Positions 22,727 to 49,717 of a stretch of DNA of 64,000 bases are shown piece after piece. The stretch is from Chlorobiaceae bacterium. GTDB lineage: Bacteria > Bacteroidota > Chlorobiia > Chlorobiales > Chlorobiaceae. The DNA is taken from contig JAAXXR010000001.1 of assembly GCA_013334335.1 (NCBI GenBank), forward strand, positions 33,688-97,687, given 5' to 3'. Under the pieces are notes generated by a model. That model had not been told where the DNA came from. It worked only from the letters and a program-made list of their open reading frames with translations, and searched no databases. Within the stretch, counting starts at the first letter, position 1. Each line of letters starts with the position of its first letter. Both the position numbers and the translations under genes were made by a program.

Positions 22727-22749
22727 GGTCGTATCGGTATTGCACGGTT

Positions 22750-24960: not shown

Positions 24961-25173
24961 ATGAGCGCACACATCTATAAGAAAATCGAGGTCGTCGGCT
25001 CTTCCCCGACCAGCATCGAGGAGGCCGTCAACAATGCCGTTGCCAAGGCTTCCGAGTCGGTCAGGAACATCCGCTGGGTCGAGATCGTCGAAACCCGCTG
25101 CCATGTGGAAAACCAGAAAATCGCGTACTGGCAGGTAACGGTGAAAATCGGCTTCACGCTTGACGAGAACTGA
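24961..25173 (+). CDS. Dodecin (flavin-binding) family protein
   Basis: 70 aa. YKKIEVVGSSPTSIEEAVNNAV....WQVTVKIGF is typical of dodecin. Confidence 0.8.
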   Translation: MSAHIYKKIEVVGSSPTSIEEAVNNAVAKASESVRNIRWVEIVETRCHVENQKIAYWQVTVKIGFTLDEN

Positions 25174-27873: not shown

Positions 27874-28065
27874 GGTGGATTCGTTTACGTCTTTACAATG
27901 TAATGAAACTAGTCAATGATGCGTTCGCCCAGCCAATAATAATAGAGTAATCCGGCATTTTTTTCAACCCCCGAGACCCCCTGATTATTCTTTGTGATTT
28001 GAAGATAAATAGACTATATTTTGGCTTTGATTTTATGGCCCGGCCTTACGGCCAGCCGCTTTCAA

Positions 28066-29641
<1,576 letters not shown>

Positions 29642-29655
29642 ACCAACGGTAAGCA

Positions 29656-29922
29656 ATGGCCAGTTCTGACAAAGCCTTAATGATCGACATCGTCACGCCG
29701 CAGAAGCTTTTCTTTTCGGGCGAGGTCACCAGCATCACCGCTCCCGGCCAGGATGGACTCTTCCAGGTCCTGAAAGGCCATGCCCCGCTGCTGGCCGCCC
29801 TTAAGGAGGGCAAGGTGAAACTCTCCCTTCCCGACAAGTCCGTGCAGTCCTTCCAGATTGTCGACGGATTCTTCGAAGTGAGCAACAACAAGGCGATCCT
29901 GCTTACCGAAGAGGTATCCTGA
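29656..29922 (+). CDS. atpC: F1 ATP synthase epsilon subunit, short form (beta-sandwich only)
   Basis: 88 aa with the N-terminal domain motifs (IVTP...F.G....I..PG..G.F.VL..H.PL). No C-terminal helical hairpin. Confidence 0.85.
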
Positions 29923-33213: not shown

Positions 33214-34596
33214 TCAGTTCCCGAACTGCCTGTTGATCTCTTCGGCGGTACGATCGTCGGCCGGGGTGATCCGGATCCGTTGAGGGATCGAGCTATAGAG
33301 GCTCCGGAAGTTCCTGACGCAGGCCGGCGAGGAGAAGTAGATCTCGTCGATGAAATCGAGGTCGATCGAGGCCTCATCCTGCTGGGGGGCATGGGTGAAC
33401 ACCCCGAGCGCGGTCACCTGGTTGCCGGCAGCACTCAACTCCCCGAACATCGCCTCGTCGACGTGACCGGTATAGGGAAGCAGAATCTGTTCATGCTCGA
33501 TCCCCTCCTTGCAGAGCAGGCCGGAAACACCTGATGACGAATGTGACTCAAGGCAAAAGTCGGGAATTATCCCGAAGGTCAGCAGTTCGGCGGCGGCGGC
33601 CTGACTCGGGGTGCAGATGCTCAGGTGAGCAAGGTGCCTCACATCTCGCCCGTGTTCGAAAAGGTACTTGAAAAAGTAACTGACAGAAGACTTGTTCTGG
33701 AAAAAGAGCATCGAGAATCCTTCAATCCCCTCCATGCACGCCTTGATCGCCTCGAGGTCTGCCGTGGAGGCTTTGCGGCAGGGAAACGGAATCCTGATGT
33801 AGCCGGCGTCTCCGTACCGCCTCGAGTCGCCACCCGCCATGAGCACTTTTTTCTTCCGTGAGTACCAGCTGTTTTCGATGAACTGGCTGATGTTGTCGCC
33901 AATGATGAGCAGTGCAGGAGAATAGACCGCCCGCTCCCGTTTCCTGAACTCGTCGAGCGTTCCGGAAAAGCTTATCTGGTTATAACGGGTGGCGTTCTGG
34001 ACCACGGCGACCTTCGTCTCCCCGCTTCGGCCTTTGGCCGCGACCATGTCGAGCACGTCGTGCACCGAAGAGGCCACCATGTAATAGACGATGGTATCGG
34101 TATCGGGGACCTGGATCTTGCTGACGGGGTGGCCGGTACAGAAGGCGACCGACGAGGATACCTTGCGCATGGTGAGTGGAATCTCCGTATAGGCGCTGGC
34201 GCCGTGCGCCGCCGTGATCCCCGGAATGATCTCGTACCCGATGCCGTGACGGCGCAATGTGGCGATCTCCTCGCCTCCACGCCCGAAAATGAACGGATCC
34301 CCCCCTTTGAGGCGCACCACCGTCCGCCCACGGAGGGCGTGCCGCACGATCTCCTCGTTGATCTCCTCCTGCTCGAAATGATGGCTGTCCTTGCGCTTTC
34401 CGGTATAGATCTTCTCTCCCGGATACTGTTCTACCAGCTCGGGGCTGACCAGGTCGTCGTAAAGGATCACGTCAGCGTCACGCAGGACCCTGTCGGCCTT
34501 CATGGTGAGCAGTTCCGGATCGCCTGGCCCTGCGCCTGCGATGTAGACGTACCCGGTGTTCGGAGCGCCCGGCATGTTTGACGGATTGTCAGGCAT
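33214..34596 (-). CDS. dsrW: Uroporphyrinogen-III C-methyltransferase fused to uroporphyrinogen-III synthase (CobA-HemD; dsrW position)
   Basis: [15 protein letters not shown] motif and a HemD-like C-terminal half. ATG 34596 has AAGGAGGT 7 nt upstream. The ATG at 34614 has no SD. Confidence 0.8.
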
Positions 34597-34617
34597 AATG
34601 CGTACCTCCTTCATGCG

Positions 34618-35079
34618 TTAGTCGTTGGCGTCGGGCCAGGTATTCAGTACGGTGTCCCGGAGGCGATTTCGCCACTCAACCGACCTCTTGACATTCTGGC
34701 CGTTTGATGAGACCGCGATGGTCATGTCGCCCTTCCTGACGATGGCCGGCGAGATGAAGTCGGACAGCTCGCGGTTGTCAACCACGTTGACCATGATACC
34801 GCGTGCAGCCGCATCCTCCCTGACACGCCGGTTGACCTCCTGGTCGTTCGTACTGGCATAGACGAGGAAAAAGCCGTCGAGATCAGATGGCTCGTAACTT
34901 TTGAATATTTCATTGAACCCTTTGCCCCTGAGTTCGTCGATGATCTCCGGAGCAATGATGGTGATGTTGCGGGTGTACTGCTCGATGGTCTGGATCTTGT
35001 GCAGGGCAATCCTGCCGCCGCCCACAAACAGGAGCTTCTTGTCATCCACCCGGATATTGAGGGGCAGAAATACTTTCAT
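34618..35079 (-). CDS. dsrV: Precorrin-2 dehydrogenase / sirohydrochlorin ferrochelatase (CysG N-domain/SirC-like; dsrV position)
   Basis: [10 protein letters not shown] Rossmann motif. 153 aa. Confidence 0.75.
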
Positions 35080-35235
35080 GAATACTTCGGTTAGGTCGAT
35101 TCACAACGACTCGAAGAGCCGTACGATTCCCGGTAATATACCGTTATCGGATCGTAGACAGCGGAATTCTTCAGGCGTCGGTTCATCCGAAGGAGATTCA
35201 ACTCCGCTTACCGGCATCTCCCCCCCCGACGATGA

Positions 35236-36387
35236 TCACTGCTGGGCCCTGACCGACACCAGGGTTTTGAGCAGTACGGTCAGCACGAGCAGGCCGATCG
35301 CCCAGATGCCGAGCGTTACCGACAATTCGGTGGCCGTGGGCACGTAATCTACGACCGCTTCCAGCGGCGTAGGAACGAAGCCGCCGATCACGAGGCCGAC
35401 ACCTTTGTCGATCCAGATGGAGAGGACGAGGCCCGCACAGGCCGAGGCAAGCCATCCGTTCTGGTGTCGAAGTGACGGAGTCATGAGCATGCCGACCGAG
35501 ATGAGGCCGACGATGAGCGACAACCACATCCACGGGACGAGGGGAGCGTGCCCCTGAAGGCCGAAATAGAGATACTGCAGGCTCTGTTTGTGGGCCGGCA
35601 CGTTGCTGTAGAATGCCGTGAAAAACTCAGTGCCGAGGAAGAAGAAGTTTGCCGTCCCTGCATAGGCGCCCAATACGGCGAGCTTTTGGCGGGCATCCTG
35701 GCCGACATCGAACGCTGCTGTTTTTTTCAGGATGAAGGTGATCAGGATCAGGATAGCCGTCCCAGCGGCGAACGCCGAAGCGAGGAACCTTGGGGCAAGC
35801 ACGGCCGTCAGCCAGAGGTGACGCGCAGGCAGGCCCGCGAAGAGAAATGCGGTTACCGTGTGGATACTGAAGGCCCACGGGATCGAGAGGTAGATGAGCG
35901 GCCTGGTCCACGCGGCGGCCGGGACGCCCCTGCGCTCGGCGCCGAGTACGGCCCAGGCGCTGACGAGATTGATCAGGAGGTAACCGTTGAGCACCATGAC
36001 GTCCCAGAATACCATGGAGTGTGGCGAGGGATAGAGCAGCACATTCAGCACCCGCTGCGGTTTGCCCATGTCGGCGAGGATGAAGAGCATACACATCAGT
36101 GCGGCCGACACGGCCAGGAACTCCCCCACGATGACAATCTTCGAGAATGCTTTCTGGTTGTGCAGGTAGTAGGGGAGTACGACCATCACTGCCGATGCGG
36201 CGACCCCGACCAGGAAGGTGAACTGGGCGATATAGACCCCCCAGCTGATGTCGCGGCCCATACCGGTGACACCAAGCCCGAGGCTCATCTGTCGGGCGTA
36301 TGCCGAAACTCCGAGCCCGATGAGGATGAGCAGGAGAGCAATCCATGCCCAGTAGCCGCGGCCACCCTTGAGCGCTTTCTCGATCAT
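35236..36387 (-). CDS. dsrP: DsrP, NrfD-family integral membrane subunit
   Basis: 383 aa, about 10 TM. Position after dsrO. Confidence 0.85.
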
Positions 36388-36396
36388 GGCTTGTGG

Positions 36397-37173
36397 TTAG
36401 ATGATGTAGAAAACTGACGGCAGCGTGCCGAGCTCCGGCTTGCGCTGCATGGTTTCATTTGATGCGAGCAATGCGCGGATCTCCGAAACCGGATCGTTCA
36501 GATCTCCGAACGTCATCGCCTTTTCAGTACAGGAGTCGACACATGCCGGAAGCAGGCCCTTGACGAGCCGCTCGGAGCAGAAGTTGCATTTTTCGACCAC
36601 GCCCCGCTCCCTTGTCGGATAGGTGGCACTGAGCTCCCTGACGGCGGGGCGCGGATCCTGCCAGTTGAAGCTTCGTGAACCGTAGGGGCAGGCGGCCATG
36701 CAGAACCGGCAGCCGATGCAGCGATGGTAGTCCATCGAGACGATGCCGTCCCAGCGGCGGAAGGTCGCTTCAGTCGGGCAGGCCCTGGTGCAGGGCGGCT
36801 CGGCACAATGGTTGCAGAGTGTCAGCACCTTGCGATTCTCGACTTCCGGGCTCTGAAACTGCTGGCTCGCGGTCGGGAAGGCCTCTTCATAGCGGCTTTT
36901 CCAGATCCACTTCACTTCATTCTTCGACTTGCCGAAATCCGGCACGTTGTGGTCATGATGGCACCTGACGACGCACCCGCTACACCCATCCCGGCATTTG
37001 CGGGTGTCGATGAGCATGCCCCATCGCACCTTTCCCGGCACAGGACTCTCGGAAAATGCCGACATGTCGGTCTGTTCAAGGGCAAACAGCGGCAGCATCC
37101 CCGCTGCGGCACCGATGCCAGCAAGAGCGCCAAGCCCTGCCATCCTGATAAAATCTCTTCGTTGTTGGTTCAT
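36397..37173 (-). CDS. dsrO: DsrO, Tat-exported 4Fe-4S ferredoxin subunit
   Basis: [15 protein letters not shown] Tat leader and multiple CxxCxxC clusters. Its ATG overlaps the dsrJ TGA (ATGA). Confidence 0.88.
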
Positions 37174-37577
37174 CGGGTTGCCTCCATGGGCGAAATATGG
37201 CAATTCCAGCAGGTCGGCTTGACGTTGGCATACTCATGGCACATGAAACAGAACATCGGGTTCGACGCGTGGCAGCCGAGACAGGTGTTCAGGCTTTTGT
37301 CAAACCGCCGGCCATCGGAAGTCACATGGGCACGGTTGCCTTTGCGCACCGAGTCGTGGCGCCATTGGTTCAGCAGTTGCATGTGGTGGGACTTCATATA
37401 CACGGTCGAAGCGATACATCTGGTGCTGTCGATGGGCACCTGCCTGGCCACAGCGACCGGCGCGGCAGCCCTGAGTGCAGAAGAGGCGCCATGCACTGAC
37501 TGCATGAACAACAAGGCCGCGACGAACATGGCGCCGGCGATCAGAAGGGCCAGAATGGCGGAGATCCGGTTACTCAT
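37170..37577 (-). CDS. dsrJ: DsrJ, triheme cytochrome c
   Basis: CLGCH, CFMCH and CWNCH. N-terminal membrane anchor. Overlaps the dsrK end by 8 nt. Confidence 0.9.
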
Positions 37578-39216
37578 CGTCGCCCTCCTCGCCGAACCCG
37601 GCCATGGGATTCTCCCTGAGGTCGACCGTCCTTTTTTTCTCGCCCTTCATGACCAGGGCATTGCCGACCAGTTCGTGCAGTCCGTAGACCGAAACGCCCG
37701 GGTTCCAGTATCTCATGAGCGTGGGAAGGCTGGCACGGTCAATGGCGCAGATCGTGACGAGGGAATCGACCTGATGGGCCTTCCTGACCTGGCCGACCGC
37801 GTTGGCCCGGGGCAGGCCGCCCCGCATGCGCATCTCCATGAACTCTTCGGCGTTGATGCCGCTGCCGGAGCCGCAGCAGAAGGTCTGTTCGCGTATGGTG
37901 TTCTCCGGCATCTCGTGGAACACGTTGCACACCTTGTTGAGCACGTAACGGGGCTCCTCGAACATGCCCATGCCCCTGGCGACGTTGCATGAATCATGAA
38001 ACGTGGTGCGCAGGTGGTCATTCCTCGAAGGGTCGAGCTTGAGCTTGCCATTGTGGATCAGGTCGGCCGTGAATTCTGCGATATGCACCATCTTCGTTGC
38101 TGCCGCGTTGGTGAATTTCGTTCCCGTGATGGGAGATACCGGTTTTTCAAGGAAATCGGCCGGGCCGTTCATGGTGCTCATGTACTGGTGCACCACCCTC
38201 CACATGTGGCCGCACTCCCCGCCGAGGAGCCACTTGACCTTCAGCCGTTCGGCCTCGTGGTACATCTTGGCGTTCAGCTTTTTCATCATCTCGTTCGAGG
38301 TGAACATCCCGAAGTTGCCCCCCTCCGAAGCGTAGGTGCTGATGGTGTAATCCAGCCCGATATGGTGGAACAGCAGCAGGTAACCCATCATCGTGTAGAC
38401 CCCCGGGTCCCCGAATACGTCTCCCGAGGGGGTGATGAAGAGGATCTCGGCCCCTTTTCGGTTGAAGGTCGGATTGACCTGCACGCCGGTCAGCTCCTCG
38501 ATGTCGTCGACGAGCGATTCGATGTTCTGCACGAAGGTGTGCGGTTCGATGCCGAGGTGATTGCCGGTCCGGTTACAGTTTGCCACCGGCGCGAGTATCC
38601 AGTTGTTGTTGACCCCGATCGTATTGAGCAACTCGCGGGCAACCATGGTGATTTCGGCCGTATCGATGCCGAGCGGACAGAACACCGAACAGCGGCGGCA
38701 CTCGGTGCACTGGTAGAAAAACATGTGCCACTCCTTGATCAGCTCCCTGGTGAGCTTGCGCGAGCCGGAAAATCCCTTGAGAATCTTTTCGGCGAGGGGA
38801 AAGTCGTTCCGATAGACCGACCTGAGCAGTTCTGCCCTGACCACCGGCATGTTTCTCGGATCGCCGGTTCCGAGGAAGAAGTGGCACTTGTCGGCGCAGG
38901 CACCACAGCGCACACATGAGTCGAGGTAGAGCTTCAGCGAACGAGATCGCTTCAGCCAGGAGCGCAATCCCTCCCGGATGGTCTTCTCCCATCCCTCGGG
39001 AAGCTGCCAATCCTCGTCGGTGGCCGCCCACTTGCGGGGGTTGGGAAAGCCGACCTCCTGAAGCACGTCGGGCTTGGCCGGAAAACACCAGTTTCCCTCA
39101 CGGAACTCCACCGGCATCTCCCACCACTCCTTGTCGGCATGATCGCCTTTCAGCGGGCTCGGCCTGTCGAGGATATCCTTGGCAAGGAGCTCTTTTCTTG
39201 GAACGTATTTTGACAT
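37570..39216 (-). CDS. dsrK: DsrK, HdrD-like FeS/CCG-domain subunit
   Basis: CxxCxxCxxxC clusters and the CCGSGSG CCG motif. Confidence 0.9.
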
Positions 39217-39218
39217 GG

Positions 39219-40214
39219 TTATTCCTTTTCTACCGGGAGACCCGCCTTTTTCATCTTTTCACGGTAATCGTCCTCATATTCGGCATAGGTCCGGAACTTC
39301 ACCGCCCTGTTCCATGGATTGACATGCCGCTTCTGTCTGCTGTTGTTGCAGAGGTTCCTCGTCGGGCTCAGGAAAATGGCTCCCATATGCATCAGCTTGC
39401 TGAAGGGAAAGTAGACGGCAAGGACGCTGACCAGGAACAGGTGGACGTAAAAGACCGGAGCTATGTCACCCGGAGGCTCGAACGACATCTCGGAAAATCC
39501 CATGGTCAGGGCTTTGATGGTCATGATATCGGCTTTCGTGACATACCGCATGAGGACGCCGGCAACGGCGATGGCGCCAATGAGGAAAAGCGGGAAATAG
39601 TCGGTCGGCAGTGAAATGATCCTGAGCTTCGCATCCCTGAGTCGCCTGACGAACAGGAATGTGGCTGCAGCGAGGACTACGGCGTCAGTCAGGTAAAACG
39701 CCGGAAGGGTCAGATCGAGGAACCGGTCGGCAACCTCCACCGGCACGATGAATCCCGGCAGTTCGACAAAAAAGAACCGCGCATGCCGAAGGCCGATGAC
39801 CAGCAGCGACCAGTGGAAGGCCAGGCCGCCCAACCAGAGCCACTTGCTCGACGCGAAGGTGAAGCCGGGCCCCTCACGGAGCTCAGCCTTGTTGTTGCGG
39901 AACAGCGAGCGGAACAGGAACACTTCGAGCAGCACCCTGACCCAGGCCTGCATCGGGGTGGCCGGGCTGTCCAGTCGGCTGTAGGGAATCCAGTCGAGAG
40001 TTTTTTCCTGGCCGGCGGTGGTGGTGATCCGGAACGGTACCGGACGCCGGAGCCAGTCGAAGAGACGGAACAGTACACCGGAAACAAACAGGGCGGCCGC
40101 CGCATAGGGGACAATCACGCCAAAGAGGTAGGACTGACCAGCGTAGCGGACGGCGACATAGGGGATCAGGCAAAGCAGCAGCACGATCGCCAGCGGCATG
40201 AGGACCTTCTTCAT
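39219..40214 (-). CDS. dsrM: DsrM, NarI-like dihaem b membrane subunit
   Basis: 331 aa, 5-6 TM with conserved His residues. 2 nt upstream of dsrK. Confidence 0.85.
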   Translation of the reverse strand: MKKVLMPLAIVLLLCLIPYVAVRYAGQSYLFGVIVPYAAAALFVSGVLFRLFDWLRRPVPFRITTTAGQEKTLDWIPYSRLDSPATPMQAWVRVLLEVFLFRSLFRNNKAELREGPGFTFASSKWLWLGGLAFHWSLLVIGLRHARFFFVELPGFIVPVEVADRFLDLTLPAFYLTDAVVLAAATFLFVRRLRDAKLRIISLPTDYFPLFLIGAIAVAGVLMRYVTKADIMTIKALTMGFSEMSFEPPGDIAPVFYVHLFLVSVLAVYFPFSKLMHMGAIFLSPTRNLCNNSRQKRHVNPWNRAVKFRTYAEYEDDYREKMKKAGLPVEKE

Positions 40215-40672
40215 CAGCCGGCCCTCCTCAGCAGCATGTGCATGCTCCGGCGCGCCTCCTCGACCTTCATTTTATAGATCGTCTCGCGATGTTCCATGAA
40301 TCGGTCGAACGCGGCCATGGTCATCGCGTCAATCCGCTCCCGGCAGAAGCTCCGGTCGGCCTGGAGGGGGGCAACGGCATCGAGGAGCTCCCGAAGTCCG
40401 GTAAAGACGGACATCGAGCGTGATGGCGGGGCAGGGATCACGGCCAACAGACGGGCGATACCGTCAACACCGGAAGCGCAGGCCTCCCCACCCTCTTCGA
40501 AACGGTCCAGAACCATGCCCATGGACTCCGAAAGCGCCTGGCAGGCAGGGCCCGATGCGGCCAGCGTATCGGGAAAAAGGGCAAGCGCAAGGTCAAGCCA
40601 GCGCGATAGCACTACCTGCCGGTGCTCCTGAATCACTCGCTGCCATGATAGTTTCATTGTTCGATTGTTCAA
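40214..40672 (-). CDS. dsrT: DsrT (RsbRD-N-terminal-like domain protein)
   Basis: 152 aa soluble helical protein in the dsrH-dsrM position. Its stop overlaps the dsrM ATG (TGATG). Confidence 0.7.
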   Translation of the reverse strand: MNNRTMKLSWQRVIQEHRQVVLSRWLDLALALFPDTLAASGPACQALSESMGMVLDRFEEGGEACASGVDGIARLLAVIPAPPSRSMSVFTGLRELLDAVAPLQADRSFCRERIDAMTMAAFDRFMEHRETIYKMKVEEARRSMHMLLRRAG

Positions 40673-40701
40673 CGTTTCGTGATCTGGCCTGGTGCCGGCG
40701 G

Positions 40702-40995
40702 TCAGAACCAGCTGTTTACCTGATGCTCCTCGACCAGAGAGACAAACCCCTGATAGTCGACAACCCCGATCCCCTCGGTAATCCTGTCGATACCCCGGGC
40801 TTCGAGATCGGGCCTCAGGGCGTACACGTTGCTTTTTTCCATGATGGACCGGATATCGGCGGAAAAGCGGTTCCCCTCCTGCGCGGCATAGACACCGTCT
40901 TCGATGAAAAGCACCGCATCTCCAGGCTGAAGAAACCTTGAACAGGTTTCCATGGTGCTGGTTTCAAACGGCGATTTGTTGATGGTATGCAACAT
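40702..40995 (-). CDS. dsrH: DsrH
   Basis: 97 aa, MLHTINKSPF start (TusB/DsrH family). Confidence 0.85.
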   Translation of the reverse strand: MLHTINKSPFETSTMETCSRFLQPGDAVLFIEDGVYAAQEGNRFSADIRSIMEKSNVYALRPDLEARGIDRITEGIGVVDYQGFVSLVEEHQVNSWF

Positions 40996-41022
40996 GGCAA
41001 TTGATTGATAATGGATAATTGA

Positions 41023-41394
41023 TCAGTGATGGATGACCGCATCCTGTTCGGTCATAAGGCGTCCGATTTCGGAAGCATCCATCACCTCGACATCAACCAG
41101 AAGGTCCCCTTCCGTCAGTCCGCGCTCTTCGAGCGAAACCCTGTCGACATAGAGCTTCTCGACGTCGTAACCGTCCAGCGCCATGAAGGTTTTGGCGAAT
41201 CCCTTGATGCCGATGCCGGTGGTGTCCTGGCCTTTCTTGAGGGCATACACCCCGTCGCCGATGAACACAACCGAAATATCCTGTTCATATGCGGCCATGA
41301 TGAGGATCATTTCGAGCCCCTCGTAGGTGTAGATCGTCCCGTGAGGCGCGCGGCGCATCACGTGCATGATTTTCCTGATGTTATCGTCTGCCAT
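41023..41394 (-). CDS. dsrF: DsrF
   Basis: TusC/DsrF-like. ATG 41394 has a GGAGA SD. The listed 41409 start is TTG and overlaps dsrE. Confidence 0.85.
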   Translation of the reverse strand: MADDNIRKIMHVMRRAPHGTIYTYEGLEMILIMAAYEQDISVVFIGDGVYALKKGQDTTGIGIKGFAKTFMALDGYDVEKLYVDRVSLEERGLTEGDLLVDVEVMDASEIGRLMTEQDAVIHH

Positions 41395-41398
41395 GTGT

Positions 41399-41758
41399 TC
41401 AGTCTCCAAAGATTACCAGCCTGTCGTTGCGAATGACAATGTCGGTCAAGGTGCCGAGACCGGTGATCCCGCTCCCCTCGACGAGGACTTCGTCGCTGAT
41501 CCCCCTCCGTTTTGATGCGGCAATGCAGGCAAGCACCTCTACACCGTGGTTTTTGCTCAGCTCGCCCCAGCGGCGGGCTATGTGTCGGTCGTCCTGGGGA
41601 GGGTCCATGAGCCTGGTGACGTTGGTCACGCCGTCGTTGTACAGGAATACGGCGTCAACCTTGTGCCCCATGGCGATCGCCGCCTCGGCGAACTTGTACG
41701 CGGTATCTGAGGCCTGGTGGTTGTATGGCCCCTCCTTGAGAAGAATACCTATGTTCAT
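41399..41758 (-). CDS. dsrE: DsrE
   Basis: TusD/DsrE-like with the active-site Cys in LACIAASKRRG. Confidence 0.88.
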   Translation of the reverse strand: MNIGILLKEGPYNHQASDTAYKFAEAAIAMGHKVDAVFLYNDGVTNVTRLMDPPQDDRHIARRWGELSKNHGVEVLACIAASKRRGISDEVLVEGSGITGLGTLTDIVIRNDRLVIFGD

Positions 41759-41790
41759 GCGTCTGAAATTAAAATGATGTCGAGCCCAAC

Positions 41791-42156
41791 TCAGGCGGCA
41801 CTGCTTTCCCTGATCGCCTCATAGAGGGGAATCCAGGTGTTTGCCCGCCCTTCGAAGGGCTTTTCGAGATAGTGGCAGAAATAGAGCGCGTCGATTGCCC
41901 GACACGAGTCACCATGCGCCAACGCATCCAGGGCCTTGCGGCCTGCCTCGGCCGTATCGACTCCGGCAAGGCGAACCTGGTGCCAGTAGTTCACGGCCTC
42001 TTCCCGGTACACGGCGGTTTTCGGCAGCGCCTCGGCCGCCTTGAGGTTCGGAACCTCGACATTGCGGGTGCCGAAAGTGGCCGCCCAGCCGGTTTCAGGC
42101 CAGCGCGAAGAGGCTTCGATCGCCTTTTCGATCCACCGCATCATCTCATCCTTCAT
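41791..42156 (-). CDS. dsrU: Uncharacterised 121-aa soluble protein in the dsrL-dsrE gap (position of the green-sulfur-specific dsrU, name recalled from literature)
   Basis: ATG 42156 has a GGAGA SD 6 nt upstream. It fills an otherwise 440-nt gap in a tightly packed operon. Two Cys (GDSCRAID, YFCHY). No family recognised. Confidence 0.55.
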   Translation of the reverse strand: MKDEMMRWIEKAIEASSRWPETGWAATFGTRNVEVPNLKAAEALPKTAVYREEAVNYWHQVRLAGVDTAEAGRKALDALAHGDSCRAIDALYFCHYLEKPFEGRANTWIPLYEAIRESSAA

Positions 42157-42197
42157 CGGAATCTCCACGTCTTGATGTGTTCCAGTTTCTGCGCGGC

Positions 42198-43934
42198 CTA
42201 CAGCCCGTCTCCCATACCCATCTGGATGAATCCTGAAGGACAGACCAGTGAGCAGAGGTGACAGCCGACACATTTTGAATAATGGGTATAGACTTTCTCC
42301 CCCGCAGGATTGTCCCGGTAGCGGGAGATCGCCTCCTGGGGGCAGAACGAGACGCACTGCTTGCAATCGAAGCACAGGCCGCAACTCATACACCGCTCCG
42401 ACTCGGAGCGCACGACCTCGCCGGAGAGTGGAACAAGCAGCTCGTCATGGTTTCCCATGATACGCTCCGGCTCGATGCTCGAGCGTTTTGCCTGCGGTTC
42501 GGGCAGAAAATAGAGGATATCCTGCTTCTGCGCCTTGGTGACTTCGCGATACCCCTGTTCCGGCATCAATTCACCCTTCAGGAACGCGTCGATCGACTGC
42601 GCGGCCTTGCGACCGTGTCCTACCGCCGTGGTGATCAGGTCAACCTTTATGGCGTCACCGCCACCAAATAGCTTCTGTCGGCCAGGAATGCGGTAATTGC
42701 GGTCGACCCTGAGCCACTGCCCCGTGCCAGCGATGCTTTCGAACCCGGACAGGTCAGCCGTCTGCCCGATAGCGGCAACGACCATGTCGGCCTCGATCTC
42801 GAAGGTCTCTCCGGCGCTCTTGTATCGCAGGAAGGGAATTGGTGAGTTCCACCCCTCTTCGCCTTTCTGCTTTCGCTCCATCCTCGAGCAGAGCACCCCC
42901 CGGACGCCACCACCATCGGCGAGCACCTCGACAGCGCCGCTCATGTAGTACATCCCGGCGCCCTCGCGCACGGCATCGTCGAATTCGTTTTCAAAGCAGG
43001 CCATCTCCTCCCGGGGGACACCCGCGACGACAGCGGCTTCAGAACCCAGCCGGAGGGCGAGCCTGGCGACGTCCATGGCGACATTCCCGTCACCGATCAC
43101 CAGCACCTTCCTGCCGACAGGAATGTCGTCGCCCATCACTTCGTAATTCCTGAGAAACTCGATGGCGTTGGTCACGCCAGCCGTTCCCGAGAATCCAGGC
43201 ACGGGAAGGCCTCGGCCGCACTGGGCGCCAACACCGACGAATACGGCGTCATAGTCTGCCTCGAGCTGTTCGAGCGTGATATCGCGCCCAACCCTGACGC
43301 CCATTCTGGTGTCGATACCAAGTTCGACGATGCGGGCGATTTCAGCCTCGAGCACCCTACGGTCGACACGGTAGCCCATGATGCCGTAGAGCACCATGCC
43401 TCCGAGCTTTTCGTTGGCGTCGAAGATCGTGACGGCATGGCCCTGCCGGCGCAACTGGTAGGCCGCCGAAAGACCGGCCGGACCTCCGCCGATGACGGCG
43501 ACGCGCCTGCCGCTGTCGGGACCGGGCCCTGGAAGTTTCAACCCCTTTTCGATGCCATAGTTGCCGATGGCGTGCTCGACGGCGTTGATGCCAACGCTCT
43601 CGTCAAGATACTGCCGGTTGCATCCGCCCTGGCAGGGATGCGGACAGATTCTGCCCATGACCGCCGGAAACGGGTTGGTGTCGACCGCCGTCTCCCAGGC
43701 GGACCTCATGGGGTCATCGGACTTTTCGATGCCGTTCAGGTAGCGGTTGATTCCCCGGATATCCTCACCGGCAGGGCATTCCGCCGTGCAGGGGGGCGTC
43801 TGCCGTACATATATCGGACACTTGTGGCTGTGATCTCCGAAAGCGACGATCTTGTCGGTTCCCGTCAGTTCACTGAACGCAGGGAATACGTAATCCGTCG
43901 CGAAATCGAGAATCGGATTAGACTCTTCTTTCAT
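42198..43934 (-). CDS. dsrL: DsrL, GltD-like NAD(P)H:acceptor oxidoreductase with C-terminal ferredoxin domain
   Basis: GGGPAGLSAA dinucleotide motif. C-terminal CMSCGLCFDCKQC and CVGCHLCSLVCP. AAAGGAG precedes ATG 43934. Confidence 0.9.
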   Translation of the reverse strand: MKEESNPILDFATDYVFPAFSELTGTDKIVAFGDHSHKCPIYVRQTPPCTAECPAGEDIRGINRYLNGIEKSDDPMRSAWETAVDTNPFPAVMGRICPHPCQGGCNRQYLDESVGINAVEHAIGNYGIEKGLKLPGPGPDSGRRVAVIGGGPAGLSAAYQLRRQGHAVTIFDANEKLGGMVLYGIMGYRVDRRVLEAEIARIVELGIDTRMGVRVGRDITLEQLEADYDAVFVGVGAQCGRGLPVPGFSGTAGVTNAIEFLRNYEVMGDDIPVGRKVLVIGDGNVAMDVARLALRLGSEAAVVAGVPREEMACFENEFDDAVREGAGMYYMSGAVEVLADGGGVRGVLCSRMERKQKGEEGWNSPIPFLRYKSAGETFEIEADMVVAAIGQTADLSGFESIAGTGQWLRVDRNYRIPGRQKLFGGGDAIKVDLITTAVGHGRKAAQSIDAFLKGELMPEQGYREVTKAQKQDILYFLPEPQAKRSSIEPERIMGNHDELLVPLSGEVVRSESERCMSCGLCFDCKQCVSFCPQEAISRYRDNPAGEKVYTHYSKCVGCHLCSLVCPSGFIQMGMGDGL

Positions 43935-43956
43935 GAAGTGCTCCTTTGGGTTCAGC

Positions 43957-45036
43957 TTAGAAACGGACGTGAGCCGACTGATTGAACGTTGTTCGCGCAT
44001 GACGATAACTGTCGATCATGTTTTCGTCGAAGGTGAGGCCGGTCTGTTCGAAAAAACGCTTCCAGCCGATCCTTGCGATCCACTCGCCAACACGCTCCCA
44101 GGGACGTCCGCCCTCCTTGTAAGCCGTAAGGATCCGGCCGATCACGTCAGTCACCTCGGGCCAGCGGGGAGGATTGTTCGGCAGGTTGTGCGCCACGATA
44201 CTCATGGTCGAGGGTTTGGAACGCGCGTTGCTGTTTTTCCCACCGACCCAGATGGCGAATTTCGAATGCTCGGGATGGTTGATCTCCATCGCCGGGCATG
44301 CACCGAAGCAGGCGCCACAGCAGATGCACTTGGCCTCATCGACCATGAGTGACTTCTTGCCATTGATTACGGTCGGCCGAATGGCGGCTACCGGGCAGCG
44401 GGCCACGGCTTTCGGAAGTTCGCAGATCGTTGCGAGGTGGTCGTGGTTGATACGGGGCGGGCGGGTGTGCTTGACCACGACCGCGATGTCTGCCTGCCCT
44501 CCACAGTTGATCGAGCAGCAGGATGTGGAGAGCCTCACCTTGTTGGGCATCTGCATGTCCTTGAACTCCCGATAGAGGGTGTCCATCATCGATTTGACTA
44601 CACCCGAGGCATCGGTGGCTGGAATGTCGCAGTGAAGCCAGCCCTGGGTATGGGATACCGACGAGACACACATTCCGGTTCCACCGACCGGGAAACCGAG
44701 GGATTCAAGTTCCCTGATCATCGGCTCAACGTTCTCCTGGTTCGGCGTCAGGAACTCGACGTTGTTACGCACCGTGAAGCGCAGGAAGCCATCGCTGTAT
44801 TTGTCGGCCACATCGCACAGCAGCCGTAACATGTCGACCGTGTCCTGGCGCGGAGTGCCAGCCCTGACCGTCCAGATGGCGTCACCGCTCTCGGCGACGT
44901 GCTTCAGTACCCCTGGTTTTGGAATTTCATGGTACTTCCACTTTCCGTAATTCTTCCTGACGACCGGATGGAGGGCCTCCTCATAGGTATGGGGTCCCGA
45001 CTCAATGGTTTTCCACGTTCTTGCTGGGCTGCTCAT
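43957..45036 (-). CDS. dsrB: Dissimilatory sulfite reductase beta subunit
   Basis: 359 aa, sirohaem/FeS Cys motifs, ferredoxin insert CICCGACFGACP. Confidence 0.92.
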   Translation of the reverse strand: MSSPARTWKTIESGPHTYEEALHPVVRKNYGKWKYHEIPKPGVLKHVAESGDAIWTVRAGTPRQDTVDMLRLLCDVADKYSDGFLRFTVRNNVEFLTPNQENVEPMIRELESLGFPVGGTGMCVSSVSHTQGWLHCDIPATDASGVVKSMMDTLYREFKDMQMPNKVRLSTSCCSINCGGQADIAVVVKHTRPPRINHDHLATICELPKAVARCPVAAIRPTVINGKKSLMVDEAKCICCGACFGACPAMEINHPEHSKFAIWVGGKNSNARSKPSTMSIVAHNLPNNPPRWPEVTDVIGRILTAYKEGGRPWERVGEWIARIGWKRFFEQTGLTFDENMIDSYRHARTTFNQSAHVRF

Positions 45037-45128
45037 GCTGTATCCTGTAGGTTGTGGCGCGGCGGTCCTTTCCGGGACAGCGCGGCGGAGATTAATGATC
45101 TGGCTGAATCAGGGCGTTCGGAACGCCA

Positions 45129-46385
45129 TCAATATTTTGCCTTGAAGTAGGGATTATCCCTCGGGCGCGTCACCTGGTTGATGTCGTGCTCGATGCCGAC
45201 CCCCTCGAGGAACTGCTTCAGGCCGACACGCTCGATCGTCTCGCCGATCCTTTCGTGATCGAGACCGTTATCGTCCCACCAGTCGATGATCTCTTCGACA
45301 AGCTCGAGAAACTCCTCGATATCCTCGTCGCTCTCCATCTTCATGAACGGCACGATCAGTGAGCCCATGTTGACGCCGACCTTGAGGGTGTTCTTGCCGC
45401 CCATCAAGAGCGAGATCCCCCGCTCCTTACCGGGTGAAAGTGCCTTGGGCATGGCATTCAGGCAATGCATGCAGCGCACGCAGTCGCGGGACTCGATCTC
45501 CATATCACCACGTTTCAGTGAGATCGCCTTGGTCGGACAGTGGTTGATCACCTCGTTGACCAGGGCGTCGACACCACGCTCGGCGATCCAGCTTCTGACC
45601 TCGTCGCGGTCGACCTGGATCGCGTCCTTCCAGGTACCGATAACGGCAAGGTCGGAGCGCATGATGGCGTTCGTGCAGTCGTTTGGGCACCCCGAGAACT
45701 TGAACTTGATCTTGTAGTTCCATTCAGGCCGGTGCAACTGCCCGACGAAGTGCTTGAGCGCCTTAAGGTGCAGCTTGAGATTGTCATAGCAGGCGTTTTC
45801 ACAGCGGCCGGGGCCGATGCAGGACACCGCGGTTCGCATGCCGGCTCCGGCACCGCCGAGATCCCAACCCTTCTGGTTCAGCTCGTCGAAACACTCCTGC
45901 ACCTTGTCCTGCTCGATTCCCTGGAGCATGATGTCGCCGGTCTGCCCGTGCAAGGCGATGATGCCGCTCCCGTGCTTTTCCCAGATGTCGCACAGCTCGC
46001 GAAGCATCGCGGTGTTGTAGTGCAGGCCTGGCGCCGGCTGGATGCGCATGGTATGGAACTCTGTCGCCTCCGGGAACTTGTCCTTGATCATCGAATATCG
46101 CGTGATGATCCCGGCGCCGTACCCATCGACGGTCACGAGTCCGCCCTTCCAGTAGCCCATTTTCGTGTTGTACGAATATTCCAGCTGGTCAAGTACACCG
46201 CGCAGCATCGGCTTTTTCGTTCTTTCTGCCAGCTGCTTGAAGCCGGAGACGAAACTCGGCCATGGGCCGCTTTCGAGCTGATCGAGCATCGGTGTCGGAT
46301 TGAGGAAAGCTCCGTCGCTCTCCGCTCCACACCCGCCGCCGCATTGACACGCGCCGTTTGCTGCGCTGTCGTTAGCACCTTGCAT
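45129..46385 (-). CDS. dsrA: Dissimilatory sulfite reductase alpha subunit
   Basis: MLDQLESGPWPSFV region and ferredoxin insert. AAAGGAGG SD before ATG 46385. Confidence 0.92.
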   Translation of the reverse strand: MQGANDSAANGACQCGGGCGAESDGAFLNPTPMLDQLESGPWPSFVSGFKQLAERTKKPMLRGVLDQLEYSYNTKMGYWKGGLVTVDGYGAGIITRYSMIKDKFPEATEFHTMRIQPAPGLHYNTAMLRELCDIWEKHGSGIIALHGQTGDIMLQGIEQDKVQECFDELNQKGWDLGGAGAGMRTAVSCIGPGRCENACYDNLKLHLKALKHFVGQLHRPEWNYKIKFKFSGCPNDCTNAIMRSDLAVIGTWKDAIQVDRDEVRSWIAERGVDALVNEVINHCPTKAISLKRGDMEIESRDCVRCMHCLNAMPKALSPGKERGISLLMGGKNTLKVGVNMGSLIVPFMKMESDEDIEEFLELVEEIIDWWDDNGLDHERIGETIERVGLKQFLEGVGIEHDINQVTRPRDNPYFKAKY

Positions 46386-46456
46386 GTTGCCTCCTTTGGT
46401 TCTCGAGTATATTGTGGCCGGCGTGTTGCGCCGGCCGATTCTTCAGCGGGGTCCTA

Positions 46457-46792
46457 TCAAACGCAACCGGTCGGCTTGGGCAGCCCTGCGATCTTGCAGG
46501 CCTGGAGCGCCGGACCTTTCGGGAAGAGGCCATAGAGGAATTCCGAAGCCTCTTTCTTGTCCATGCCACGCTCGGAGGCAATCGCCTTGGTCAGCACCTT
46601 GACGGCAGGCGCGATCTGATACTCGTCATAGTAGTTCCGGAGAAACTTGACCAGAGACCAGTGCTCCTCGCCCATCTCGATCTCCTCGCCTTCGGCGAGC
46701 TTCTGCGCGACATCTTCGTTCCAGTCTTCGAGGTTTACCAGATAGCCGTTTTCGTCAGTTTCGTAGCTGACACCTTTGACGTCGATTGACAT
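46457..46792 (-). CDS. dsrC: DsrC
   Basis: 111 aa ending CKIAGLPKPTGCV (two conserved C-terminal Cys). Confidence 0.93.
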   Translation of the reverse strand: MSIDVKGVSYETDENGYLVNLEDWNEDVAQKLAEGEEIEMGEEHWSLVKFLRNYYDEYQIAPAVKVLTKAIASERGMDKKEASEFLYGLFPKGPALQACKIAGLPKPTGCV

Positions 46793-46924: not shown

Positions 46925-46946
46925 TATATAACTATATAGTTAAACA
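46925..46946 (-). promoter_or_regulatory. Palindrome copy C (symmetric core TAACTA-TA-TAGTTA) upstream of dsrC
   Basis: TATATAACTAtaTAGTTAaaca. The 14-bp perfect palindrome is at 46929-46942. Confidence 0.5.
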
Positions 46947-47089
46947 AATAAGCGCAATTAAGCAACAGCCCGGAATAATTTATTTCACTTTTTCATGCGG
47001 CCCTGAGAGGGAGGGCCTGCTGGTGGGGGGCTGACCTGTTCATGTCGATGGCGGGGAGCACCGGAGGATCCGGATCAAATACAACCGCA

Positions 47090-47103
47090 TAGTTATATAG
47101 TTA
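47090..47103. repeat. Tandem (direct) pair of the same half-site
   Basis: TAGTTA-TA-TAGTTA, 20 nt downstream of the dsrN stop. Confidence 0.5.
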
Positions 47104-47122: not shown

Positions 47123-48577
47123 TCAAGCATTTTCGATCAAATTCCCCGACTGAAACAACTCCGGATCAAGGCGTGAAGGCCTTTTGCCCATGCCGGTCCG
47201 GAAGGCTGCGGCCAGCGCCACGAATCGCTCCGCCCACCCCGGATTGGCCGCCGCATGCAGGTGGGCGTATGAGGCGAACAGATTGCGGTACAGCACGCCA
47301 TCCTCGCTGCCGGTGACGCCGCTGCCCCTCTGGAGATCAAACTGGTAGCTGACGTCAGCCGCTGCGTCACCCGGTTTGGAGTAATGGAATTCATGCGCCC
47401 TGATGCGCTCGCCCTGGTTGAACCATGCCGATTCTACCCGGCTGACAAGCTCCATGTAGCCACATCCGGCAGGGCGCGGCTGATAGGTGATGTCGAAGGG
47501 AAGCACCCCGGCCAGAGGCCATCGCTTGCCCCCGTAGGTTGCGCTCCGGCACAGGTAGATCAGGCCGCCGCACTCCGCCCAGGCCGGCAGTCCCGCCTCG
47601 ATGCGCTCCCGCACGCTCGCGAGCAGCCCCGAGTTCGAACAGAGACGCTGAAAAAACGACTCGGGAAACCCTCCGCCGATGTACAGGCCGTCAACCTCAG
47701 GGAGGAAATCGCTGGTGAAGGTGTCGATGAAAAGCAGCTCGGCGCCGTTCGACTGCAGTGCCTCGAGATTGTCCGGATAGTAGAAGCAGAACGACGCATC
47801 CCTGAAGACTCCGATCACCGCTTTCCTTGCCTCCCGGCGACACGATTGGCCTGCAGGAGCGGAAAGCATCGGAGGAGCCAGGTCGAAAAGCCCGCGAATC
47901 GCCTCCATGTCGCAATGACGCGCGACCATGCAGGCTGACGCGTCGATGAACGCTTCCGCGTTGTCGGCCTCTTCGACGGTTGTCAGTCCGAGATGCCGCT
48001 CGGGAAGCTTCAGGGTATCGTCCGAGGGAATCGAACCAAGCACCGGAACGTGGCAGAAGGTCTCGATCGCCTCCCGCTGCTTGGACTCCTGACGAGGACT
48101 GGCCACCTGGTTGAGCACGACTCCGGCGATGTTCACCTGTGGCCTCATCGCCTGGAGGCCCAGGACCTGTGCAGCAACACCGCGATTCATCCGCCGGCTG
48201 TCCACGACAAGCAGTACGGGAGCATCAAGAAGGCTGGCAAGGCCAGCGCTGCTGTCCGAGCCATCGATGTCGAGGCCGTCATGCAGACCGTGGTTGCCTT
48301 CGATGAGGGCAATGCCGTCACCGGCACGGAGCCACGCGTCGACAAACCGCTCACGTGTTCGCTCCTCTCCGTGCATCCACAGGTCGAGATTGTAGCACTC
48401 CCGGCCGCTTGACACCCTGTGCCACATCGGATCGATGAAGTCAGGCCCCTTCTTGAAACTGGCAGAAACCTGATTCCGAAGAGCAAAATGACGCAGGAGA
48501 CCAAGGCTGACCGTCGTCTTGCCTGAACTTTTCCAGGCTGCCGAAATCATCAACCTTGGTATCGTTATCTGCTGCAC
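47123..48577 (-). CDS. dsrN: DsrN, CobB/CbiA-like amidase (sirohaem amidation)
   Basis: PRLMISAAWKSSGKTT P-loop and a C-terminal GATase-like domain. GTG start with an AGAGGAG SD. Confidence 0.88.
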   Translation of the reverse strand: MQQITIPRLMISAAWKSSGKTTVSLGLLRHFALRNQVSASFKKGPDFIDPMWHRVSSGRECYNLDLWMHGEERTRERFVDAWLRAGDGIALIEGNHGLHDGLDIDGSDSSAGLASLLDAPVLLVVDSRRMNRGVAAQVLGLQAMRPQVNIAGVVLNQVASPRQESKQREAIETFCHVPVLGSIPSDDTLKLPERHLGLTTVEEADNAEAFIDASACMVARHCDMEAIRGLFDLAPPMLSAPAGQSCRREARKAVIGVFRDASFCFYYPDNLEALQSNGAELLFIDTFTSDFLPEVDGLYIGGGFPESFFQRLCSNSGLLASVRERIEAGLPAWAECGGLIYLCRSATYGGKRWPLAGVLPFDITYQPRPAGCGYMELVSRVESAWFNQGERIRAHEFHYSKPGDAAADVSYQFDLQRGSGVTGSEDGVLYRNLFASYAHLHAAANPGWAERFVALAAAFRTGMGKRPSRLDPELFQSGNLIENA

Positions 48578-48643
48578 GATAGGCGCTCCTCTGAAACCTG
48601 AAGTTCATTGTTACCCATACCTCCACCCATCCACTGGTATTTT

Positions 48644-48880
48644 TTACTTCTTCATGATCATGAAGGTATGCACGCCACCTGCTTCGGTGTGCGACACCAG
48701 CTCGTTGCCGGTTCGATTTGCCCAGGAGGCCATGTCATTGACCGAACCCGGATCGGTGGCAGTCAGTTTCAGCACCTGCCCCGACGCCATGCCGTCGATG
48801 GCTTTCTTGGTCTTGAGGATCGGCAGCGGGCAGTTCAGGCCTTCGCAATTCAGCTCCACGCTTGATTGGATCTCGCTCAT
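48644..48880 (-). CDS. tusA: TusA-family sulfur carrier
   Basis: 78 aa, CEGLNCPLPILK (CPxP motif). Confidence 0.88.
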   Translation of the reverse strand: MSEIQSSVELNCEGLNCPLPILKTKKAIDGMASGQVLKLTATDPGSVNDMASWANRTGNELVSHTEAGGVHTFMIMKK

Positions 48881-48972
48881 GTCAGAATCTCTTTTGAGTT
48901 GTATGAAATGTAAAATTCTCGAGCCTGTTGTCTGGCCCGTGCCGCCCCGGAAGGCGGCAAACGAATACAGCC

Positions 48973-49446
48973 TTACCGTTTCGAGGCGGGCGACCGCTGT
49001 TCGGGACGGACTTTGGACAGGAAAAACAGGTCAGCCGCCTCCGGATCCACCGGTCGTCCACTTCCGTCCTCGAGCGGCTCCTCGTAGTCGTTCCACCCCC
49101 GGAGTCCGGTTTTGAGGGAAACCACGTTGCGGTAACCGAGCTGCTGCATGACCCTCGAGGCCAAGGCGCTGCGTCGGCCGGACCTGCAGACCACGACGAT
49201 TTCGCGATCCCTTGCCAGAACCAGTTCAGGGACGGTATCCTCGTAATCCCACTCGCATGCCGATTCGAGCACCCCGCGGGGTACGTTGATCGACCCTCCG
49301 ATATGCATGGCAGCGAACTCCTCCGGCTCCCGCACATCGAGCAGCAAGATCTCGGGATTTTCCTGCATTCGGTCGACGAGATGCCACGGCATGATCTCCC
49401 TGATCTCGGCGAGGCAGTCTCGGACGATGTCACTCAATCGCATCAT
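48973..49446 (-). CDS. Single-domain rhodanese (thiosulfate/persulfide sulfurtransferase)
   Basis: LLDVREPEEF and the active-site loop CRSGRRS. Confidence 0.85.
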   Translation of the reverse strand: MMRLSDIVRDCLAEIREIMPWHLVDRMQENPEILLLDVREPEEFAAMHIGGSINVPRGVLESACEWDYEDTVPELVLARDREIVVVCRSGRRSALASRVMQQLGYRNVVSLKTGLRGWNDYEEPLEDGSGRPVDPEAADLFFLSKVRPEQRSPASKR

Positions 49447-49507: not shown

Positions 49508-49529
49508 TATATAACTATTCAGTAATATA
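49508..49529 (-). promoter_or_regulatory. 22-bp AT-only imperfect palindrome (copy B) upstream of rhd-tusA-dsrN
   Basis: TATATAACTAttCAGTAATATA. About 60 nt upstream of the rhd ATG. Confidence 0.55.
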
Positions 49530-49717
49530 GCATTAAACTATTTTGTCTGTCAAGCGCCGGCGCCAACTTTTTTCTCCGACTGCGAAGGAAATCTCCAGCC
49601 ATAGCGTGCCGCGCATTAAATCCCCATTGTTTATTATATTTAAAATCAGGCCTTTCGAGCCCCAAAAGCGCAGGGCGGGCTGCCGGCGAACTTTCACCAA
49701 ACCTCTCCGTACGAACG

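Follow-up and report, generated by a model that had tools for sequence, protein, structure and literature searches.

A 22-bp palindrome precedes three sulfur-oxidation transcription units in a 64,000-nt stretch of DNA from a Chlorobiaceae bacterium (assembly GCA_013334335.1, contig JAAXXR010000001.1, positions 33,688 to 97,687; hereafter the window): the dsr operon, the sulfur-relay unit rhd-tusA-dsrN and an operon for a PSRLC3/Soe-like complex. We propose, with a probability of roughly three in four, that the element is a two-fold symmetric operator lying over the core promoters of sulfur-oxidation units, where it would be bound by a homodimeric repressor. The proposal builds on the sequences of the copies, their conservation, positional specificity and symmetry, and their predicted overlap with promoters; from these we infer protein binding, repression, the signal involved and identity with the published motif PSOS-2. 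The finding is real, conserved and biologically meaningful, although the motif itself is very probably largely known already, as a published putative operator.

A recurrent palindrome upstream of sulfur genes

Four copies of the palindrome lie in the window (Table 1). Those at rhd and at the PSRLC3/Soe-like operon share 20 of 22 positions, and the distance to the start codon is 61 nt for the rhd copy (start at 49446), 132 nt for the dsrC copy (46792) and 356 nt for the PSRLC3 copy (24321). A preliminary description of the window had listed these three, and their coordinates, sequences, 20/22 agreement and arm symmetries all held. What it had overlooked is the fourth copy, in the dsrN-dsrC spacer, which carries its TATATAACTA arm on the minus strand and has a TTGACT box of its own (47126-47121) overlapping the dsrN stop codon. 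The term "AT-only" had to be relaxed as well: each of the two best copies contains 3 G/C among its 22 positions, which makes the element AT-rich.

Chance does not explain these copies, as had been argued from their similarity. Searching with the 22-mer and allowing up to 3 mismatches gave 2 matches in the window and 0 in 100 shuffles, while TATATAACTA with at most 1 mismatch occurs 5 times against 0.12 expected. On the weight-matrix scale described below, the three copies listed earlier score 28-32 bits; in shuffled intergenic DNA of the window the 99th percentile is 11.4 bits and the maximum 19.3 bits (500 shuffles).

Conservation across Chlorobiaceae

To follow the element beyond the window, species-representative genomes were scanned for DsrN, yielding 80 loci of up to 21 kb each: 65 from Chlorobiaceae (1.09 Mb) and 15 from SAR324, Proteobacteria and other groups (245 kb). 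The window's own genome is not among them (best DsrN identity 73%). A strict regular-expression seed search was run, a weight matrix was built from the sites it found, and all loci were then scanned with this matrix, genes being placed by tblastn.

The seed expression found the palindrome in only two types of place, the dsrN-dsrC spacer and a region about 1-1.5 kb upstream of dsrN. The consensus of the resulting matrix, TATATAACTATATAGTTATATA, is perfectly palindromic. At a threshold of at least 20 bits the Chlorobiaceae loci contain 60 matches, and all 60 lie in promoter regions of four types of unit. Sorted by nearest downstream gene, they precede dsrC (32), dsrE2 (11), rhd (9), psrB (5) and fadL (2), and the single unassigned match (L059:727) also stands before a FadL-type gene, encoding a 454-aa protein of Pfam family Toluene_X. 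Sites of at least 18 bits are present in 40/65 Chlorobiaceae loci, and the highest score in the 15 dsr loci from other groups is 17.9 bits.

The same units carry the site in many Chlorobiaceae genomes. Upstream of rhd, identical or near-identical sites are found at 25-107 nt (L002, L005, L009, L010, L011, L013, L014, L017, L066, L074), and such sites also occur in the metagenome contigs L155 and L165. Orthologous psrB sites lie 67-388 nt upstream of the gene (L018, L020, L021, L025, L028, L039, L057, L059, L060, L063, L065, L204, L205), and genes assigned by family to the Toluene_X/FadL type are preceded by sites in L059, L060, L063, L065, L016, L204 and L205. In the dsrN-dsrC spacer, the distal copy is kept as TATATAACTATGYGGTTGWATT in Chlorobaculum-type loci (L002, L009, L010, L011, L017), and in Chlorobium limicola-type loci there are two copies at full strength, spaced by 186-205 bp. 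When 56 non-identical dsrC upstream regions are compared, the 8-mers recurring in the largest number of them are pieces of the palindrome, TAACTATA in 40/56 and GTTATATA in 30/56.

Many Chlorobium genomes have these genes together in a single island, composed of pckG, fadL, a divergent dodecin gene, psrBC-psrA-tauE, dsrE2-rhd-tusA-dsrN, and dsrC with the remaining dsr genes, in which every transcription unit is headed by a copy of the palindrome (24.6, 28.0, 19.0 and 28.6 bits in L063; 24.2, 24.8 and 21.3 bits in the C. limicola-type contig L204). There, dsrE2 heads or joins the rhd-tusA-dsrN unit, and the palindrome precedes dsrE2 or tusA. In the lineage of the window this order has changed: dsrE2 now closes the PSRLC3 operon, behind a 27-nt gap without a site, while rhd faces glyS and has the site, and rhd-tusA-dsrN lies 25 kb from the PSRLC3 operon. 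Across these gene orders the site thus remains tied to whichever gene comes first in a unit, as expected of a selected control site. The preliminary description had named two outcomes that would count against it, a similar motif frequency in unrelated intergenic regions and a lack of conservation at orthologous dsr/soe operons; in the loci compared here, neither was seen. At the level of sequence comparison, this supports the earlier suggestion of a putative common cis-element for the dsr genes, the sulfur relay and the sulfite-oxidising complex, to which a FadL-type gene can be added.

A further site was seen in Chlorobaculum limnaeum (CP017305; L203, 17378-17399), where an 18.5-bit match, CATATGACTGCATAGTTATTTT in gene direction, lies 214 nt upstream of the gene for the cytochrome subunit of flavocytochrome c sulfide dehydrogenase. 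As a single case, it is a hint that the regulon of some species may include fccAB.

Symmetry and predicted promoter overlap

We aligned 81 non-identical sites in gene direction. Information content rises sharply at position 1 and drops after position 22, and the profile is mirror-symmetric, with the strong positions 1, 3, 4, 5, 7, 8 and 9 pairing with 22, 20, 19, 18, 16, 15 and 14 around a weaker centre; the arm core is TAACT-N4-AGTTA. Beyond about 4 nt the copies share no flanking sequence. The two arms vary independently, the pairs 6/17, 9/14, 10/13 and 11/12 being complementary in only 39-49 of the 81 sites. Non-compensatory changes of this kind are expected of a site for a protein dimer and argue against an RNA stem.

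The upstream arm may also serve as a promoter element. Most sites are preceded, 14-23 nt before the motif, by an A-tract and a TTGA box, and position 6 is T in 31/81 upstream arms, giving TATATT, while the mirrored position is off consensus in only 7/81. This orientation-dependent bias fits a superposed -10 box. At rhd, a simple consensus scan predicts a sigma-70/RpoD-type core promoter with 11/12 consensus matches and a TG before the -10 hexamer, the hexamer being the upstream arm of the palindrome (Table 1). The remaining sites match the E. coli consensus less well than the rhd site does. If the predicted overlap is correct, the rhd transcript would start near the centre of the palindrome and the operator would extend from roughly -12 to +10. 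Downstream of the motif, the 81-site alignment contains no conserved promoter-like signal.

The two dsrC modules each have their own TTGA box. Looping between them was considered and rejected, given that their centre-to-centre distance ranges from 94 to 223 bp across species with no fixed phase; judging from this arrangement, they are more likely tandem promoter-operators than a looping pair.

Relation to published motifs

The element had been put forward as apparently undescribed. Very probably, however, it corresponds to PSOS-2 ("putative sulfide operator sequence 2"), a motif published by Hilzinger, Raman, Shuman, Eddie and Hanson, who mapped transcript starts in Chlorobaculum tepidum (bioRxiv 10.1101/172254; AEM 2018). 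PSOS-2 was first derived from sox promoters (soxJ) and was then reported from every dsrC promoter of Chlorobiaceae as well as from those of CT2231-CT2230 (FadL-family) and homologues; at dsrC, soxJ and CT2231 of C. tepidum it overlaps the -6 box and +1 (bioRxiv 10.1101/172254). In the same organism, genes with PSOS-2 have lower expression on sulfide than on S(0) and thiosulfate; the motif, which matches nothing in motif databases and for which no binding protein is known, was proposed to be a repressor operator (bioRxiv 10.1101/172254).

Palindrome and PSOS-2 agree in organism family, in their position at dsrC and in their presence at FadL-type promoters: in the loci compared here, the palindrome is the dominant conserved word of the dsrC promoters and also precedes FadL-type genes. 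The preprint text contains no sequence for PSOS-2 and no mention of a palindrome, and neither rhd-tusA-dsrN/dsrE2 nor the PSRLC3 operon with its fused subunit figures among its sites, only an independent dsrN promoter being noted. No sox locus is present in the window or the fetched loci. New here are the exact 22-bp symmetric form, the sites at the rhd/dsrE2 relay and at PSRLC3, the tandem dsrC copies, the absence of the element from the dsr loci examined outside Chlorobiaceae, and the link to ArsR-type operators.

A second published element, the "CRP-like motif" (CLM), occurs upstream of psrABC (CT0496-CT0494) and cydAB in C. tepidum; its authors noted a likeness to the PrfA box WTAACAWWTGTTAA, placed it 49 and 114 bp ahead of the -6 box and proposed that an activator binds it (bioRxiv 10.1101/172254). 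The two elements share the half-site letters TAAC/GTTA and a tie to a polysulfide-reductase-like operon. However, the CLM is spaced TAAC-N4-GTTA and the palindrome TAAC-N6-GTTA, and the former stands about 50-115 bp upstream of the -6 box whereas the latter coincides with the predicted -10 box; by the description available, spacing and position rule out that they are the same. The operons differ too, C. tepidum psrABC consisting of three separate genes and the window operon having a fused Fe-S/NrfD subunit, so that the complex of the window is probably a different one. This would be the distinction between PSRLC1 and PSRLC3, as Frigaard, Dahl and Gregersen name such complexes. Positions 24754-24767 of the window read ATAACATGCGTTAA, a CLM-like/PrfA-box word (TAAC-N4-GTTA) that lies on the upstream side of the PSRLC3 palindrome at a distance of 54 bp and could be there by chance.

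Candidate regulators

The preliminary description had seen no regulator gene next to any copy, in agreement with our scan. Among a scanned subset of the open reading frames (ORFs) of the window, the only transcription factor is a sigma-54-dependent activator 8 kb beyond the PSRLC3 operon (7732-9837, minus strand; 701 aa, with a GAF domain), located beside an outer-membrane efflux/HlyD/MFS cluster. Nothing connects it to the palindrome.

We then turned to metagenomes, using the motif preceded by a TTGA box as query. At least 120 contigs matched, mostly noise from AT-rich organisms. Among the matches listed, four are green-sulfur-bacterial contigs, all with the site at rhd or dsrC (L155, L165, L181), and neither a new regulon member nor a sox promoter appears. 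Also among the matches listed, an ArsR-family gene starts at the palindrome, downstream or divergently, in 13/120 contigs, and no ArsR homologue was detected elsewhere in those 13. The family call is based on Pfam HTH_5/HTH_20 and on PDB matches to CadC, ArsR, SmtB and HlyU; most of these ArsR genes are paired with an AHSA1/SRPBCC gene. In two contigs that are not from green sulfur bacteria, L105 (941-979) and L172 (615-653), the palindrome lies between the gene of a 102-aa, two-cysteine ArsR-family protein and a divergent partner encoding a rhodanese/YgaP-like membrane protein, with a rhodanese/YgaP-like gene in L105 and DUF6132 plus YgaP-like genes in L172. Judging from gene order, this looks like a sulfur-linked ArsR system using the same operator. 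A similar layout is that of the sulfide-responsive genes ygaV and ygaP in E. coli.

Characterized operators of the family provide a comparison. The ArsR protein Rv2034 of M. tuberculosis has a DNase I-footprinted operator, CCGTAAGT-CTAA-ACTTACGG (PMC3338718). Its arm-N4-arm geometry (an 8-4-8 repeat) is that of the palindrome, the cores differing by one base pair each, TAAGT/ACTTA against TAACT/AGTTA. In Rhodobacter capsulatus, SqrR reads ATTC-N8-GAAT within a two-fold symmetric 22-bp minimal operator (bioRxiv 10.64898/2026.05.15.721447). The palindrome resembles ArsR/SmtB operators in general, which are two-fold symmetric sites of 20-22 bp where a winged-helix homodimer sits over the promoter, while the persulfide sensor SqrR differs from it by its ATTC-type half-sites. 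BigR, also a persulfide sensor, has half-sites of the ATTC type as well. The signal logic may differ too, since PSOS-2 genes fall on sulfide, whereas SqrR-type repressors leave the DNA as persulfide rises. A symmetric, AT-rich repeat of 20-22 bp and the occurrence of the same sequence beside ArsR genes are thus both found, and the analogy makes an ArsR/SmtB-type winged-helix protein the best, if tentative, candidate for the binder in green sulfur bacteria.

A near-perfect palindrome, for example TATATAACTATATAGTTATATT, also stands 18-24 nt before the start codon of AphA-like PadR genes in four Anaerolineae contigs (L171, L176, L198, L201), between a TTGACA box and that codon. From this placement it appears to be the self-operator of an AphA-like PadR group, and apparently an undescribed one. 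The genes regulated there would be unrelated to those of the window (NmrA-like, flavodoxin-like, ABC-2 transporters). PadR was rejected as the cognate regulator because, by homologue search, all four contigs come from Anaerolineae/Chloroflexi and not from green sulfur bacteria. From these comparisons we conclude that the site is of a type read by winged-helix homodimers.

Proposed mechanism and alternatives

Mechanistically, a homodimeric repressor encoded away from its targets would occupy the 22 bp over the -10 box and transcript start of the units that oxidise stored sulfur, and would thereby block RNA polymerase. These units would be dsrC-dsrAB and the genes behind them, (dsrE2-)rhd-tusA-dsrN, and the PSRLC3/Soe-like sulfite-oxidising complex with TauE, joined in many genomes by the FadL-type outer-membrane channel. 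By binding or releasing the DNA according to sulfide or sulfane-sulfur status, the repressor would switch all of them together, and the cell would jointly express S(0) uptake (FadL-type channel), the cytoplasmic sulfur relay (DsrE2, Rhd, TusA), Dsr with its cofactor amidase DsrN, and sulfite oxidation or export (PSRLC3, TauE). For the direction of this response we borrow from C. tepidum, where the genes are off on sulfide; it may or may not match the release-on-persulfide logic of the ArsR type. In its widest form, an ArsR/SmtB-type repressor sensing sulfide or sulfane sulfur might govern the entire "stored sulfur to sulfate" branch of Chlorobiaceae as its master switch, with a regulon wider than published that would comprise DsrE2-Rhd-TusA and DsrN, PSRLC3 and TauE, the FadL-type channel, Dsr, Sox and perhaps flavocytochrome c; this extension is possible, and we consider it rather doubtful.

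Several observations weigh against the operator proposal. The matrix was built from the same loci that were scored, which makes the scores partly circular; the positions of the matches are not, because the seed search used no positional information. Only 36/57 dsrC regions score at least 12 bits (23/57 at least 20 bits), and in the C. thiosulfatiphilum clade of Chlorobaculum the dsrC site is degenerate (TATATAACCGTATATCGATATT, below 12 bits). With the PSRLC3 site 356 nt before the start codon, either the leader is long or the divergent dodecin gene is controlled instead. Identity with PSOS-2 is drawn from position and regulon overlap. As to the binder, tblastn with seven queries over the window and the 80 loci turned up neither an ArsR-like nor a PadR-like gene, whether in the window or among the 1.09 Mb from Chlorobiaceae (one weak match, in L003, lies within an inserted, unrelated gene). 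A cognate ArsR gene, which in this family is usually adjacent and self-regulated, is therefore missing from the window and loci searched; one could still lie at a distance elsewhere in a Chlorobiaceae genome. Finally, given the similar palindrome before the Anaerolineae PadR genes, the binder may belong to another family.

Four other explanations were weighed, which even together are improbable. The element might be a bare, strong core promoter that the units share and that the housekeeping sigma factor reads with no dedicated regulator: a -10 box followed by a conserved stretch at the start of the transcript. The upstream arm is indeed usable as a -10 box with TTGA and an A-tract ahead, and the RpoD consensus of C. 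tepidum is given as TTG-N17-23-TA[ATC][ATC][AT]T (bioRxiv 10.1101/172254). Promoters need no palindrome, however, and here the downstream arm, RGTTATATA, mirrors the upstream one and is conserved equally or more; the palindrome is fixed while its spacing from TTGA varies between 14 and 23 nt, and the element is limited to a few sulfur operons and absent from the other promoters in 1.09 Mb. We regard this explanation as quite unlikely, and we find it only unlikely that the site serves an activator or dual regulator, with a promoter downstream of the palindrome or with MerR-type action from the -35/-10 region. The PSRLC3 sites at 356-388 nt from the start codon (window and C. limicola-type contig) would suit such a regulator, as would the distance from TTGA to the -10-like arm, which often exceeds 17 nt as in MerR-type promoters. 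On the other hand, the spacer at rhd is an ordinary 18 nt, no conserved promoter-like signal follows the motif on its 3' side, and in C. tepidum the motif lies over the mapped +1 and -6 box at dsrC, soxJ and CT2231, genes that fall on sulfide.

It is very unlikely that the palindrome acts as an RNA hairpin at the 5' end of the transcript, controlling stability or translation. An inverted repeat that may be partly transcribed would allow it, but the stem would be nearly all A-U with a loop of 0-2 nt, the differences between the arms are non-compensatory, there is no Rfam match, and a start inside the palindrome, as predicted here and as reported for PSOS-2, implies that only one arm is transcribed. 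The least credible explanation is that the copies are what remains of a mobile or repetitive element, or its ends, dispersed through transposition or recombination: several near-identical copies within 64 kb and the rearranged gene order around them would fit it, whereas single 22-bp units with shared flanks of at most about 4 nt, at orthologous promoter positions in dozens of species and with no transposase or direct-repeat context seen, do not.

Genomic context

Genes of the window were identified by NCBIfam and Pfam matches; in the dsr operon the family-library scan covered dsrC, dsrA and the distal genes, and the others were placed from ORF order. The unit downstream of the palindrome at 49508-49529 is a sulfur-relay and siroamide-synthase unit.

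Table 1. Palindrome copies, predicted promoter and sulfur transcription units in the window (coordinates of the 64-kb stretch)
Feature	Coordinates	Strand	Details
Operator copy, rhd-tusA-dsrN promoter (putative)	49508-49529	-	TATATAACTATTCAGTAATATA; gene direction TATATTACTGAATAGTTATATA; 32.0 bits
Distal, weaker copy, dsrN-dsrC spacer (putative operator)	47078-47099	-	AATACAACCGCATAGTTATATA; gene direction TATATAACTATGCGGTTGTATT; 18.3 bits
Proximal operator copy, dsrC (dsrCABL...) promoter (putative)	46925-46946	-	TATATAACTATATAGTTAAACA; gene direction TGTTTAACTATATAGTTATATA; 30.8 bits
Operator copy, spacer between divergent dodecin gene and PSRLC3/Soe-like operon (putative)	24678-24699	-	TATATAACTAACCAGTAATATA; gene direction TATATTACTGGTTAGTTATATA; 28.4 bits
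Predicted sigma-70/RpoD-type core promoter of rhd	49524-49553	-	TTGACA 49553-49548, 18 nt, TG-TATATT 49529-49524
rhd-tusA-dsrN unit	47123-49446	-	rhd 48973-49446 (rhodanese); tusA 48644-48880 (TusA); dsrN 47123-48577 (cobyrinic acid a,c-diamide synthase family = DsrN)
dsr operon	33214-46792	-	dsrC 46457-46792; dsrA 45129-46385; dsrB 43957-45036; dsrL 42198-44000; distal end, siroheme/tetrapyrrole-type genes 34618-35079 and 33214-34614
PSRLC3/Soe-like operon	17882-24321	-	fused Fe-S/NrfD subunit 22750-24321; molybdopterin subunit 19868-22786; TauE-family protein 18883-19839; DUF1634-like 18452-18886; dsrE2 17882-18424

Divergent from the PSRLC3 operon lies a dodecin gene (24961-25173, plus strand), whose start is 262 nt from the palindrome in the common spacer; the same divergent arrangement with the palindrome is seen in L063 and L204. 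Because of this shared position, the palindrome may control dodecin, PSRLC3 or both. Within the 356-nt PSRLC3 leader there is a terminator-like hairpin (24425-24449, minus strand) of 11 pairs, 8 of them G-C, followed by a T-run, with a counterpart in the C. limicola-type L204 (12027-12044) and none in L021. The idea that the stretch from the PSRLC3 palindrome to the start codon forms a conserved RNA leader was rejected, there being no Rfam match, no conserved sequence in a six-species alignment, and terminator-like hairpins that differ inconsistently between species.

At the other end of the operon, a degenerate relative of the palindrome, TATATAACCATATTACCGATAATATT (17820-17845), lies 53 nt past the end of dsrE2, and no gene comes after it on the same strand over more than 1 kb. 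Its sequence is similar to that of the degenerate dsrC site in the C. thiosulfatiphilum clade, and it may be a relic of the operator that once preceded rhd, before the island was rearranged. Elsewhere in the window, a 536-aa ORF without a family match (28046-29656, minus strand) is probably not a gene; a tRNA gene (28066-28138, plus strand; Rfam, 65.6 bits) overlaps its start.

Implications for sulfur oxidation in green sulfur bacteria

Green sulfur bacteria have few recognisable regulators. A sharply defined, symmetric operator of 22 bp would be a direct handle for finding the sulfide-response protein, and the site could be used as a switchable promoter part for engineering these organisms. 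For their physiology, co-regulation would be independent evidence that three players so far poorly characterised share the Dsr pathway: the relay of DsrE2, Rhd and TusA, the outer-membrane channel of FadL type with its proposed role in sulfur uptake, and PSRLC3 with its proposed role as a sulfite oxidoreductase. If a single repressor does act as master switch of this branch, its regulon would be functional evidence placing PSRLC3 and the FadL-type channel in S(0) and sulfite oxidation.

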